Origin: Polyangiales bacterium
GTDB taxonomy: Bacteria > Myxococcota_A > Polyangia > Polyangiales > Ga0077539
NCBI GenBank assembly: GCA_044229975.1
Contig: JBGARZ010000005.1
Location: 256,001 to 320,000, forward strand
DNA: 64,000 nucleotides
Direction of reading: 5' to 3'
The notes under the pieces are model-generated. The model was not told where the DNA came from and searched no databases. It saw only the letters and a list, made by a program, of their open reading frames with translations. This document shows positions 252 through 4,266 of this stretch, one piece after another. Every line of letters begins with the position of its first letter. Positions within the stretch are counted from its first letter, which is position 1. The position numbers and the translations under genes are program-made.

Positions 252-1928
252 ATGCTCAACGACCTCTTCGCCCCATGGCGCGACGCCTGGACGCTGCACC
301 TCGACGCCGACCTCGTCGTCGTCGACAAGCCCGTCGGCGTCTCCACCCACGCTCCCGACCCCGTGCGCCGCGACGACGCCGTCAGCCGCCTCAAGTCCTG
401 GCTCTCCGCCCGCGACGGCACCCCGGAGTCCGCCGTCTATCTCGGCGTCCATCAGCGGCTCGATCGCGACACGTCGGGCGTGCTGCTCTTCGCGCGCCGC
501 AAGGAGGCCAACAAGGCCGTCGCCGACGCCTTCGAATGGCGCTCGGCGAAGAAGCGCTACCTGGCCGTCGTCAGCCCCGCCCCGCGCATCGACAGCGGAA
601 CCCTCGATGACCTCCTCGCCCCCGCCGACGACGGGATGATGCAGGTGGTCACCGCCTCGCCCCGACGCCCCGCGCCCAAAAACGCCCAGCGCGCCATCAC
701 CCGCTGGTCCGTCGTCTCACGCCACGGGACGCGCGCCCTCGTCGCCCTCGAACCCGAGACCGGGCGCACCCATCAGCTCCGCGTTCAGCTCGCGGCGATG
801 GGAACGCCCATCGACGGCGACCCCCTCTACGGGAAGGTCGCCGCGCCTCGCCTCATGCTCCACGCGAGCTCACTCACGCTGCCGCATCCTTCCACCGGGC
901 GCCCTGTCACGTTCACGGCCGAGACCCCGAAGGAGCTGCTCGCCTGGGCGAAGGGCGAGCCCGACCCGCGCACGCTCGACGAGCGCCTGTGCGCCGCGGC
1001 CGACCAGCGCTGGGAGCTCGCGCGCGACCCCGACACCACCGCGTTTCGTCTCGCGCACGACGGCGACGGCTTCGCGGCGACGCCCGTCGACGTGTACGGC
1101 GACTGGGCGCTGGTCCACTGCTACGACGCGACGCTCGATGATGCGCTCGCGGGCGCGCTGCTCGTGGGCGGGCTGCGCGGCGTCTACGTGAAGCACCGCC
1201 CCAAGCAGGCCAACACCGCCGTCGACACGCGCAAGGAGTCGCTTGCGCCGAAGCACGCGGTGAGCGGCGAGGACGCGCCCGAGACGATGGAGGCGCGCGA
1301 GCACGGGCTGCGCTTCGAGGTGAAGCTCGGCGACGGTCTCTCGACCGGCATCTTCCTCGACCAGCGGGAGAACCGGCGACGCGTTCGTGAGCTCTCGGCG
1401 GGCAAGCGGGTGCTCAACCTGTTTGCGTACACGGGGGCGTTCAGCGTGGCGGCGGCGGCGGGCGGAGCGACGCACACGACGACGGTGGACGTGTCGGCCC
1501 CGGCCATCGCGTGGGCGCGCAAGAACCTCGCGCTCAACGGCGCGAGCGACGAGGCGCGGCACGTGTGCGTGGTGGCGGATGTCTTCCCGTGGATGGAGGC
1601 AGCGAAGGCGCGGAAGCAGGTGTTCGACCTGGTGCTGCTGGACCCGCCGAGCTACGCGACGACGCGCGACAGCCGGTTCTCGGCGGCGTCGGACTATCCC
1701 AAGCTCGCGGCGCTCGCGATGAAGCTCGTGGCGCCGGGCGGCAAGCTGCTGGCGTGCACCAACCACCATGACATCGCGCGGATGAAGTTCCGCCGGTGGA
1801 TGTACGAGGCGGCGCGGGCGGCGGGGCGCGAGGTGACGCAGGCGAAGGACCTCCCCGCCCCGAGCGACTTCCCCCCGGCACCGGGCGGGCACGTGCACCT
1901 GAAGTCGGTGCTGCTCACGCTGAAGTAG
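252..1928 (+). CDS. fusion of RluA-family pseudouridine synthase (N) and RlmI/RlmK-like SAM-dependent rRNA methyltransferase (C)
   Basis: RluA motifs VVDKP, HQRLDRDTSG (catalytic Asp), TGRTHQLR, GDPLYG, LHA; methyltransferase motifs TGIFLDQRENR, VLNLFAYTGAFS, LDPPSY. Start placed at ATG 252. Confidence 0.9.
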   Translation: MLNDLFAPWRDAWTLHLDADLVVVDKPVGVSTHAPDPVRRDDAVSRLKSWLSARDGTPESAVYLGVHQRLDRDTSGVLLFARRKEANKAVADAFEWRSAKKRYLAVVSPAPRIDSGTLDDLLAPADDGMMQVVTASPRRPAPKNAQRAITRWSVVSRHGTRALVALEPETGRTHQLRVQLAAMGTPIDGDPLYGKVAAPRLMLHASSLTLPHPSTGRPVTFTAETPKELLAWAKGEPDPRTLDERLCAAADQRWELARDPDTTAFRLAHDGDGFAATPVDVYGDWALVHCYDATLDDALAGALLVGGLRGVYVKHRPKQANTAVDTRKESLAPKHAVSGEDAPETMEAREHGLRFEVKLGDGLSTGIFLDQRENRRRVRELSAGKRVLNLFAYTGAFSVAAAAGGATHTTTVDVSAPAIAWARKNLALNGASDEARHVCVVADVFPWMEAAKARKQVFDLVLLDPPSYATTRDSRFSAASDYPKLAALAMKLVAPGGKLLACTNHHDIARMKFRRWMYEAARAAGREVTQAKDLPAPSDFPPAPGGHVHLKSVLLTLK

Positions 1929-2214
1929 CGGGGGTGTCGGCCCCGTGACGGAGCCTCCGGGTGCCGCTGGAGAGCTCCGACAATCGTCCTCCGTGGCCGT
2001 CGCCGCGTCTCGCGGCCCCCACGGGTCGACCGCGACGGCGATCCCTCGCGTCTCCCGCGATCGCCACGGCGATTCGACCACCCACCCGACACCACGCCGC
2101 CGTCAACGCGGCCGACCCGCCGCGGTGACACATCCTCGCGAAACCACGCGTCAAAAACATGACTCCTGTCGCTCGGTAGCCTCCCGTTCCAAGCTTCAGA
2201 CGAGGAACCCTCCC

Positions 2215-2568
2215 ATGCGCCCCACCGACCATCACGCCGACCCGATGGCCCACTACTCCGAGCTCGCCGTGCGCGACCCGGCTCACCTCGCAGCCTGCGT
2301 CCGAGATCGCACGCTCCCGCAGGCCCACCTTGCCGTCGCCGCCGCCTGCCTCGGCCGCGCGACCGACCATGCGCTGGTGCGCGGCGCGCTCCTCCCGCTG
2401 CTCAGCCACTCGGACGTCCACGTCCGCCTCGGGGCGCTCGACGGCCTCGCGCTCCACCTCGACGCCCGCGTACGCGCCTCGCTCCAGTGGCTGCTGCTGG
2501 AGGAGCCCGACGCCCTGGTCTCTTATCGCGCGAGGACGCTCCTCAGCGTCTCGCCGCTCGCCGCCTGA
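2215..2568 (+). CDS. small helical HEAT-repeat-like hypothetical protein
   Basis: GAGGA before ATG 2215; LLPLLSHSDVHVRLGALDGLA and EPDALVSYRARTLL resemble HEAT/PBS units. Confidence 0.55.
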   Translation: MRPTDHHADPMAHYSELAVRDPAHLAACVRDRTLPQAHLAVAAACLGRATDHALVRGALLPLLSHSDVHVRLGALDGLALHLDARVRASLQWLLLEEPDALVSYRARTLLSVSPLAA

Positions 2569-2579
2569 CGCTCCGCCGC

Positions 2580-2769
2580 CACTCCGTTAGTCGATCGAAC
2601 GCGCTCCCACCGCTCGCCTGGTCACTCCCGAAGTCGATCTTCCCGACCTCGGCCCCTCATCCGGTCACTTCCGAAGTCGATTTCCCCGACCTCGACCCCT
2701 CCAACACACACTTCCGAAGTCGGTTTCCCCGGCCCCGAACGTCTCGAAACCACTCCCGGAGTGATTCGG
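2580..2769 (+). repeat. degenerate tandem array, 43-bp period, core CACTYCCGAAGTCG
   Basis: Units start at 2580, 2623, 2666, 2709, 2751 (spacings 43, 43, 43, 42); intergenic. Confidence 0.85.
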
Positions 2770-2837
2770 AACGAATTCGACCGTCGACCCGAAACCCCCG
2801 CGATCGGCGTCCCGATACGCGACCGGAGGTTGCAAAC

Positions 2838-3656
2838 ATGTCCAACTCAATCGTTTCCAAGTCGTCCGTCACCAACAACCTGTCCGTGTCCGCCACGGAC
2901 CAGCTCCCCGACGCCGAGGTCGGAGACCACAACGACGTCGCACGGCACAAGACCGCCGCGGGCTTCGTCCCGCTCGCGGAGGTGCGCCGGTGCAACGCCG
3001 ACATGCGGCTCGCGGTGTTCAACGCAACCGCGGCCCGCGCCGCGCTCCTCGCCAATCGCCCTGCCATCGAGGCGAGCGGCGTCCACTTCGACTGGACCAT
3101 CCTCGACACCCTGAACTCCCTCGGCCGCGCCGTTACGTTCATGGTGCGCCAGGTGGTCCCGGGCGAGACCAGCGACGTCAACGCGCTGCTCAAGGCCGGC
3201 CGCCCGTTGCGCCGCCTGCTCCTCGCCAACGCCCGCTTCCAGGTCATCGCCGAGCGCTGCCCCGCCGCCGCGCTGACCAACATCGCCCGCAAGCGCGGTC
3301 CCCTCGGCATCGCCGACGACCTCGTCAACCTCGCGTTCGTCCACACCCAGCACGGACTCGTCGAGGGACCCTCCATCACCCCCGAGAAGATCGCCCTCGC
3401 CAAGTCCATCGGCACCGAGCTGCGCGACAAGGTCCGCCCCACGGGAGAGACGCGTGCCGCGCCGCCCACGAGCGCCCAGCGCTACGCCACCAACCTGCGC
3501 GACCGCCTCTGGACGGTCTTCCTCCAGCGCTACCAGGCCATGGAGCGCGCGGGCGGAGCCATCTGGGGCGCCGAGCTGCGGAAGCGTGTGCCCTCCGTCC
3601 ACGCGCGCTTCGTCACGAAGAAGCCGACGAAGAAGCCAGGAGCCCCAACCGGCTGA
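2838..3656 (+). CDS. hypothetical protein (predicted helical, basic C-terminal tail)
   Basis: Strong SD GGAGGT (2825-2830) before ATG 2838; typical codon bias; no recognised catalytic motif. Confidence 0.8.
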   Translation: MSNSIVSKSSVTNNLSVSATDQLPDAEVGDHNDVARHKTAAGFVPLAEVRRCNADMRLAVFNATAARAALLANRPAIEASGVHFDWTILDTLNSLGRAVTFMVRQVVPGETSDVNALLKAGRPLRRLLLANARFQVIAERCPAAALTNIARKRGPLGIADDLVNLAFVHTQHGLVEGPSITPEKIALAKSIGTELRDKVRPTGETRAAPPTSAQRYATNLRDRLWTVFLQRYQAMERAGGAIWGAELRKRVPSVHARFVTKKPTKKPGAPTG

Positions 3657-3663
3657 CCGTCGC

Positions 3664-4266
3664 CTACGCCTCGCGCTCTTCCCTTGCGCTGAGGCACCCC
3701 TCGCTCCCCGCCGGAAACACCCGGCAGTTGTCCGGCCTCAGCTCGTAGATCCCGCAGTCGTTGCCGCGCAGGTGCACGCAGTCCCCGCCGCGCAGCACCC
3801 GCAGCACCCGCCGACCGCGCGACACCCGGACGAACCCCTCCCCCGACAGCTCCGCCCGCCCCTCCTCCGCCCAGCGCGCCTCGTCCTCCTCCTCCAGCTC
3901 CACGCGGTTCTTCCGGCAGCACATCGCGCACGCGCGGCAGTCGAGCGCCTCGGCCACCATCGCGCCAGGGTGCTCACCGTCGCGCTCGCACCACTCAGCC
4001 ACCTGCTCGCACAGCCGCTTGGGGAGCTTCACCGCCGCGAGCCCCGCCGCCTCGCCCGCCTCCACCTCGTCGAAGCCGCCCACTCCCAGGTCGAGCAGCG
4101 CCCACGCCGTCAGCTCGGGGATCATCCCCTCGTCACACGGCAGCAGCAGCCGCCACCGCGGCTCGCTGCGAATCACCGCGTGACCGCCGTCGCGCACGTG
4201 CGCCACCGCGTTGGCCTCGTACTTCGGGTCGTAGGTTCGCCACACGGGCCGCCACACGTCGCTCAT
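3664..4266 (-). CDS. YkgJ-family CxxCxxCC cysteine-cluster protein with N-terminal extension
   Basis: CRACAMCC ... CVHL ... CGIYELRPDNCRVFP. Confidence 0.85.
   Translation of the reverse strand: MSDVWRPVWRTYDPKYEANAVAHVRDGGHAVIRSEPRWRLLLPCDEGMIPELTAWALLDLGVGGFDEVEAGEAAGLAAVKLPKRLCEQVAEWCERDGEHPGAMVAEALDCRACAMCCRKNRVELEEEDEARWAEEGRAELSGEGFVRVSRGRRVLRVLRGGDCVHLRGNDCGIYELRPDNCRVFPAGSEGCLSAREEREA

Follow-up and report, generated by a model that had tools for sequence, protein, structure and literature searches.

A 43-bp tandem array before an uncharacterised helical-protein gene in a Polyangiales bacterium, and its counterparts beside homologous genes

In a window of 64,000 nucleotides, the whole stretch of Polyangiales DNA analysed here, a quasi-palindromic box is repeated with a period of 43 bp directly upstream of the gene for a 272-aa protein, P0001. 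The question raised by this locus is whether array and gene form a module, as the initial annotation had suggested, and what might bind the array. The locus is laid out as follows.

2215..2568, + strand: HEAT-like ORF of 117 aa, single-copy in this genome
2580..2763, no strand: tandem array of five units, period 43 with a last step of 42, non-coding
2751..2763, no strand: last box, CACTCC-C-GGAGTG, a perfect palindrome identical to the core of the array at C34:175450-175631
2773..2817, + strand: promoter-like motif, with GAATTC at 2773-2778, GAAAC at 2791-2795, 17 nt, and CGATA at 2813-2817
2825..2829, + strand: Shine-Dalgarno sequence GGAGG, 8 nt before the ATG
2838..3656, + strand: gene for P0001, 272 aa, predicted all-alpha, pI 10.6, a member of family A, a large unnamed Myxococcota family

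The array and its surroundings in the window

All five units of the initial annotation were recovered with the sequences that it had quoted, at 2580, 2623, 2666, 2709 and 2751 (steps of 43, 43, 43 and 42), giving an array of 184 bp that is C-rich on the + strand (C 0.45, G 0.20). Each unit opens with a first box, CACTYCCGRAGT, at positions 1-13; a weaker second block follows near positions 28-38, and the stretch between the two is variable. Unit 1 is degenerate, with 9-11/14 matches to the other units, and unit 5 is a box only, CACTCCCGGAGTG (2751-2763), which is indeed the perfect 6-1-6 palindrome CACTCC-N-GGAGTG that had been described. The central units had been said to share about 28 nt followed by about 15 more variable ones; units 2-4 agree at 22-25 of their first 28 nt and at only 2-8 of the next 14, and the GTCG-N7-CGAC element reported for two units is found in units 2 and 3. 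TRF gave a period of 43 with 2.7 copies, 82% matches and a score of 141, and the best 60-nt self-match of the array was 0.83, whereas 300 dinucleotide shuffles averaged 0.50 and reached at most 0.60. Half-period identity within the unit is only 0.30, the dyad symmetry of the unit consensus has p = 0.83, and the worst 9-nt window identity in the array is 0.41. The array is genuine and non-coding: a 43-bp period cannot keep a reading frame, and the open frame running through this one was not taken as coding since the start Met of P0001 is common to all nine aligned close homologs.

The array ends 74 nt before the ATG of P0001, close to the 70 nt or so estimated at the outset, and the strong Shine-Dalgarno sequence and basic tail of the 272-aa product were likewise confirmed. 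Between array and gene lies the motif GAAAC-N17-CGA(T/A) with an upstream GAA(T/A)T, which was observed at this locus and in about ten close homologs. It also precedes array-linked genes of unrelated helical families, GAAAC-N17-CGAT being common to families A, B, D and G. The motif resembles promoters of the ECF type, and a sigma-70 promoter scan of 1900-3800 gave 0 sites. From its sequence, the motif at 2773..2817 may act as a promoter; its putative -35 element lies 28 nt from the array end, without overlap, and a promoter so placed, 3' of the array, would keep the array outside the mRNA. Pairing between array units and the Shine-Dalgarno region, considered from the sequences only, was dropped in view of the 3' position of the putative promoter relative to the array.

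The gene for P0001 stands among housekeeping genes on C20, a contig of 557 kb of which the window spans 256001-320000. Its neighbours are a pseudouridine-synthase/methyltransferase fusion, the HEAT-like ORF, a gene for a CxxCxxCC protein and a hemE-like gene. The fusion (window 252-1928, 558 aa) combines an RNA pseudouridine synthase with a SAM-dependent rRNA methyltransferase-like domain and is conserved in genus relatives. The HEAT-like ORF was rejected as a conserved partner, its DNA-level matches being spurious and the ORF single-copy in this genome.

P0001 and the arrays beside its homologs

P0001 had no sequence match in Pfam, NCBIfam, PHROG or the PDB, no phage homologs were found, and tblastn gave no match among 72,556 PLSDB plasmids. 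The family-A profile retrieved 1,251 representatives at E <= 0.001; the named records include Polyangium and Sorangium, and the Atlas clusters are mostly from Myxococcota. Family A was matched in 23/30 genomes of the same taxonomic family, and a deeper profile matched 11/151 genomes across the phylum, including this one, which carries 11 paralogs. The nearest Pfam-bearing cluster in a language-model search, DUF6261 (PF19775; score 0.81, 45% of members), is a lead only, and its Pfam model matched 0/138 family-A members at E <= 0.05.

Structure prediction with Foldseek had been proposed in the initial annotation. AlphaFold2 gave an all-helical model (pLDDT 89.9, coil at residues 1-30, longest helix 39 residues), and Foldseek retrieved nothing at E <= 0.001 in PDB or BFVD. 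The best VIA-align match, alpha-catenin (Z 7.5, rmsd 2.6, 89 aligned), is at the level of a generic bundle, and this absence of a fold match does not show a new fold. Since the structural matches align either to residues ~51-250 or to 109-207, we interpret the predicted fold as a pair of four-helix bundles connected by long helices (residues ~51-110 + 212-250 and 109-207). An internal two-fold sequence repeat was undetected by hhalign (probability 0.5%). Helices 86-106 and 109-137 together span 52 residues, which by arithmetic on the predicted secondary structure, and not from coordinates, amounts to ~78 A if they are collinear; two DNA turns measure 73 A.

The median pI of family A is 9.7, and the C-terminal tail carries a net charge of at least +2 in 128/138 members. 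N-termini are net-basic in 54/108 members, some with Lys/Ala-rich repeats, and that of P0001 itself is not basic. Four arginines (R125, R221, R223 and R237) are conserved in the family. No recognisable DNA-binding domain was found in P0001 or family A by Pfam or fold searches. The database protein P0004 (C34:19822-20889) has an 86-aa N-terminal extension that is a 42-bp array read in frame as 14-aa repeats, and this extension is probably a gene-calling artefact.

Arrays were sought at 61 distinct family-A loci (30/119 and 30/48 profile matches plus 4 paralogs from this genome, duplicates removed, window included), an array being called at a self-match of at least 0.70 in 60 nt at a period of 40-45 or 83-87. 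With these thresholds, chosen after seeing the data as were the block borders used further on, an upstream array was observed at 33 of the 61 loci, which are related by descent, and at 26/39 of the closer ones (E<1e-50). Downstream arrays were present at 9 loci, an array on either side at 40, and none on either side at 21, some of these on short contigs. The same test applied to the genes of this genome, called by a codon model built in this analysis, was positive for 69/7,524, and for 44/1,658 with an upstream gap of at least 200 nt, which corresponds to a ~20-fold enrichment of upstream arrays at family-A loci over gap-matched genes. Array and gene therefore do recur together, as had been suspected. 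A metagenome scan gave 3 family-A loci, of which the sole one analysed with upstream DNA had no upstream array. Four DNA sequencing runs gave only short pieces at low depth, with no information on copy-number variation.

What is kept across the homologs is the period and not the box sequence. The CACTCC boxes, sought upstream of homologs as the initial annotation had proposed, were not found there, and only the 42/43-bp period is shared: the 33 extracted arrays have periods of 42 (15), 43 (14), 41 (2) and 44 (2), which bears out the initial proposal of a spacing of about four helical turns. The units change by subfamily and are alike only above ~70% protein identity, the mean similarity score being 41.1 for proteins more than 70% identical (7 pairs) and 14.6-16.3 for those below 55%, against a shuffle null of 14.8. 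Dyad symmetry is modest, with p <= 0.05 in 9/33 units. A GACCCTCC-like motif, identified post hoc, was found in 8/33 family-A arrays (null mean 1.4, maximum 6) and in 0/14 other linked arrays.

An array of this kind might act as RNA. Transcribed by read-through, it would give the structured leader considered in the initial annotation, or guide RNAs of unit length that the protein would bind, as in CRISPR or TIGR. The upstream ORF is encoded on the same strand, and a search of the DNA from there to the array revealed no sense-strand terminator; small hairpins are possible in units 2 and 3, 27/33 family-A arrays are C-rich on the sense strand of the gene, and the part of PMC8161180 covered here reports transcription of other constant-length bacterial repeats. 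The array plus leader, however, folds no better than shuffles (z = -0.53), and in 1900-3800 Rfam gave only a chance match and no CRISPR repeat match; on these results a structured leader RNA was rejected. Hypervariable spacers are also lacking, within-array unit identity having a median of 0.82 and the worst 9-nt window a median of 0.67 (n=21 arrays), and arrays occur downstream of genes as well. In one pair of close homologs, L005 and L029, whose proteins are 73% identical, the first array aligns to the second in reverse orientation (95 vs 38). This inversion, together with a promoter-like motif between array and gene, favours a DNA site over a leader RNA, and we regard a function at the RNA level as improbable.

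TIGR-Tas systems, in the part of PMC12045711 covered, have 36-nt units with box C/D motifs and variable 9-nt spacers, and a Nop domain. They resemble this locus in having a repeat array beside a small protein gene and in poor sequence conservation between loci. Units here are, however, 42/43 nt long (41-44 overall) and near-identical within an array, and TIGR-Tas was rejected on these 41-44 periods and for want of 36-nt units with variable 9-nt spacers. A Nop domain had no Pfam match in the 138 family-A members and no PDB sequence match, and was absent from the fold-search matches listed. CRISPR was rejected as well: no Rfam repeat was found in 1900-3800, the units are degenerate whole copies, and there is no cas-like gene among the adjacent genes scanned.

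Sister arrays, orphan arrays and other helical families

The periods of non-coding arrays in this genome peak at 21/22, 42/43 and 53/54. Sixty-one non-coding arrays have a period of 41-44 or 84-86, most of them with unrelated units. Forty are orphan and 21 adjoin uncharacterised proteins of 190-296 aa in eight groups, the latter count being partly circular because groups B-H were found starting from array neighbours. A genome-wide search for the box (<=1 mismatch, both strands) gave 67 matches, and all 13 phased ones lie either in this window or at C34:175450-175631, where five boxes are spaced 42, 43, 42 and 42 with no family-A gene beside them, between genes that we take to be FHA-like and EAL-like. 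According to the initial annotation, a neutral minisatellite would recur away from any gene and be missing upstream of homologs. The box does recur without the gene, but the second site is itself a phased 42/43-bp array, and arrays are present beside homologs, which makes a neutral minisatellite unlikely.

The alignment score of this pair of arrays is 34, within the foreign range (maximum 37). An orphan sister with a score of at least 36 was found in this genome for 13/21 gene-linked arrays, compared with 1/27 arrays from other genomes, and in the seven pairs examined the similarity is limited to the array, with no remnant of a gene or promoter evident beside the orphan. A complete Sorangium genome (G204) contains one unit family in six distant arrays of period 43, two of them before family-A paralogs and four orphan. 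Identity between these loci is 0.89 in blocks and 0.42 in linkers, the borders of the blocks having been drawn by eye (lag-1 autocorrelation p = 0.023), and the linker length is fixed. A second genome (G203) has three arrays of that unit, two of them gene-linked. Three of three further arrays tested had no sister in their own draft genome, one having a second copy in a relative.

Two other repeat families were observed in this genome. One has 42/43-bp units with the core CTTACCCGGAGGGACGCG and occupies nine sites (C13:213528, C2:354006, C32:37949, C32:665623, C32:713138, C34:261790, C34:420930, C36:424426 and C6:6154), of which three adjoin helical genes (groups F and H); compared with the other unit families, this one looks more mobile. 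The second, a 53/54-bp REP/BIME-like family, is present in 23 intergenic arrays; these often form inverted clusters that face each other, and they sometimes adjoin 43-bp arrays (for example C26:70463-72492, C28:43541-44338 and C32:405505-406130).

The array-gene module has a patchy distribution, and an array can persist as an orphan with no gene beside it. In all of the genus relatives that have both flanks (5/5), the methyltransferase gene faces that for the CxxCxxCC protein, and the HEAT ORF, the 43-bp array and P0001 are all absent from the site between them. These five and one more relative have a different, 21/22-bp orphan array at this site, which is syntenic to window 1929-3663, and a seventh has none. 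That array (CCCGAAAC...TGCRTCR) abuts the stop of the CxxCxxCC gene (L094:1307-1500, L095, L096, L098, L099 and L100), and a pattern search in 5 genomes found only one further orphan site for its unit. Its word TCGACCCGAAAC recurs at window 2785-2795, within the promoter-like motif, which may be by chance. The best explanation of the arrays must cover such persisting orphans, by binding in trans or by gene loss.

Neutral minisatellites could arise by slippage at insertion hot spots where accessory genes also land. The joint absence of ORF, array and gene in the relatives, and the different array in their place, would fit this, as would the rapid turnover of arrays, the one in this window being found in none of 8 genus relatives. 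Slippage, however, fixes no period, and non-coding arrays peak at three; nor would it account for the enrichment over gap-matched genes, or for distant sisters that keep their blocks and exact linker length while the linker sequence drifts. We consider a neutral origin very unlikely; it and an RNA-level function both fit worse than binding by P0001 or by a shared host factor.

The 42/43 period was found with eight groups of helical proteins (A-H). Among A, C and D, the groups tested, no mutual homology was detected, and profile comparison of family A with families C or D likewise detected no similarity. In relatives, arrays were present at 18/30 loci of group C and 12/30 of group D. The predicted topology of family C differs from that of A, consisting of very long helical hairpins with helices of 59 and 63 residues (pLDDT 93.7). 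Groups B-H, at least seven, comprise proteins of 190-296 aa beside 21-, 42/43- or 85-bp arrays, and a scan of their representatives gave no credible Pfam match. At C11:433943-442112, CRISPR-like arrays, with a repeat that is presumably of type I-E, come to within 33 nt of a helical gene of group C, which is accompanied by a 43/86-bp array of its own. In addition, CCGCCACCCC-type intergenic repeats of 10-12 bp lie ~60 nt upstream of members of a four-member family of ~300-aa paralogs (for example C4:208375, C23:442955 and C39:162446), a layout that is a one-turn analogue of the array-plus-gene layout.

Since families C and D share the period without homology to A, DNA geometry or a common host factor may set it, and a shared host binder is for this reason the main rival to P0001. 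The arrays would then be DNA platforms for a nucleoid protein or transcription activator, the helical genes its targets sharing a promoter type, and the platforms would spread by duplication or gene conversion. The GAAAC-N17-CGAT motif common to four families is consistent with this, as are the predominance of orphan arrays and the persistence of one of them at a single site across genus relatives. A single binder, however, would not explain units that differ between paralogs and follow protein similarity. The common motif found post hoc is confined to 8/33 family-A arrays and no other linked ones, and only 4/10 matches to the promoter motif in intergenic DNA have an array upstream. We rate a common host factor as rather unlikely.

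Proposed binding of the array by P0001 and comparison with known systems

We think it somewhat likely that P0001 binds cooperatively to the phased array before its gene, with sister arrays as further targets, and that it regulates its own promoter. On this view, the units of the array are likely sites for binding on double-stranded DNA, set four helical turns apart. They would be coated by P0001, a basic protein predicted to be an all-helical rod, probably with one copy or pair per 42/43-bp unit. Coating would control the promoter of P0001 itself and would mark sister arrays that have the same sequence at other places on the chromosome, binding at orphan sites most likely serving local regulation or DNA bridging. 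Direct observation covers the array, a fixed period with changing sequence, the gene association, the sister arrays, the fixed-length linkers of Sorangium and one inversion; P0001 as the binder, its oligomerisation, its self-regulation and a paralog-specific reading of sequence are proposals. Against P0001 as binder count the excess of orphan over linked arrays (40 to 21) and the period shared by unrelated families. So do the homolog loci that lack an array, the genus relatives with an orphan array but no such gene, the three arrays with no sister in their own draft genome, the foreign-range score of the C20-C34 pair, the modest dyad symmetry, the gap between the array and the putative -35 element, the N-terminus of P0001, which is not basic, and the failure of Pfam and fold searches to show a DNA-binding domain.

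A wider possibility, which we hold only tentatively and as doubtful, is a dispersed address system in myxobacteria. Ten or more paralogous rods of a new two-bundle fold would each polymerise on their own 42/43-bp code and join or mark distant sites, protein and array co-diverging into orthogonal pairs with the four-turn register fixed.

Iterons and type II centromeres (ParR-parC) are phased repeats on one DNA face, cooperatively bound beside the gene of their binder. The initial annotation had likened the array to both, a label that is not supported, as no Rep initiator or ParA/ParM gene adjoins this array. Unlike these systems, moreover, the chromosome has many paralogs with different arrays, plus orphan arrays.

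KfrA of the broad-host-range IncU/IncP plasmids, in the part of PMC7783346 covered, is an alpha-helical protein that forms oligomers; the operator to which it binds consists of tandem repeats in front of the kfrA gene itself. It has an N-terminal HTH and a long coiled-coil tail, and its five 9-bp repeats lie over the -35/-10 (PMC7783346). By analogy, we propose that the module would work like such a repeat-operator autoregulator. P0001 differs from KfrA, as there described, in its two predicted bundles without an HTH match and in 43-bp units upstream of the putative promoter; its paralogs are chromosomal without a PLSDB match, whereas KfrA is plasmid-borne (PMC7783346). Pfam gave no HTH for P0001 and one for 1/138 family-A members, at E 0.024, and the fold searches listed no KfrA-type family.

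Subirana and Messeguer have described bacterial tandem repeats of constant length and variable sequence, of 20-21 or 52 nt, and propose an unnamed protein whose polymerisation on DNA requires repeats of constant size (PMC8161180, in the part covered). Most arrays of a species in that class have a short characteristic motif in common, to be set beside the GACCCTCC-like motif of 8/33 family-A arrays. The arrays here resemble those repeats, as far as that part describes them, in being non-coding, in having many families per genome and in their fixed length and free sequence. They differ in their 42/43-bp units, twice 21-21.5, and in being tied to specific protein families; the main text of PMC8161180, as covered, contains the word 'upstream' 0 times and names no partner gene. 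A literature search found no description of this gene-array pairing, most subscription papers and supplements being outside its coverage.

Repeats of constant length and variable sequence are thus a published puzzle, for which a protein partner has been proposed and, in the literature covered, left unnamed. This locus offers a concrete candidate, a 272-aa protein paired with 184 bp of array; a matched site exists elsewhere in its genome, and a cultured Sorangium strain has six matched sites. If binding by P0001 is true, the family, which numbers over 1,200 sequence clusters, would represent a DNA-binding fold without a clear solved relative, with targets that differ from paralog to paralog. 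It would also supply a candidate for the suspected protein that keeps these unexplained bacterial repeats at a fixed length. Should the address-system reading be true, these would be the missing proteins behind constant-length satellites, and myxobacteria would hold a natural library of orthogonal, HTH-free DNA binders.
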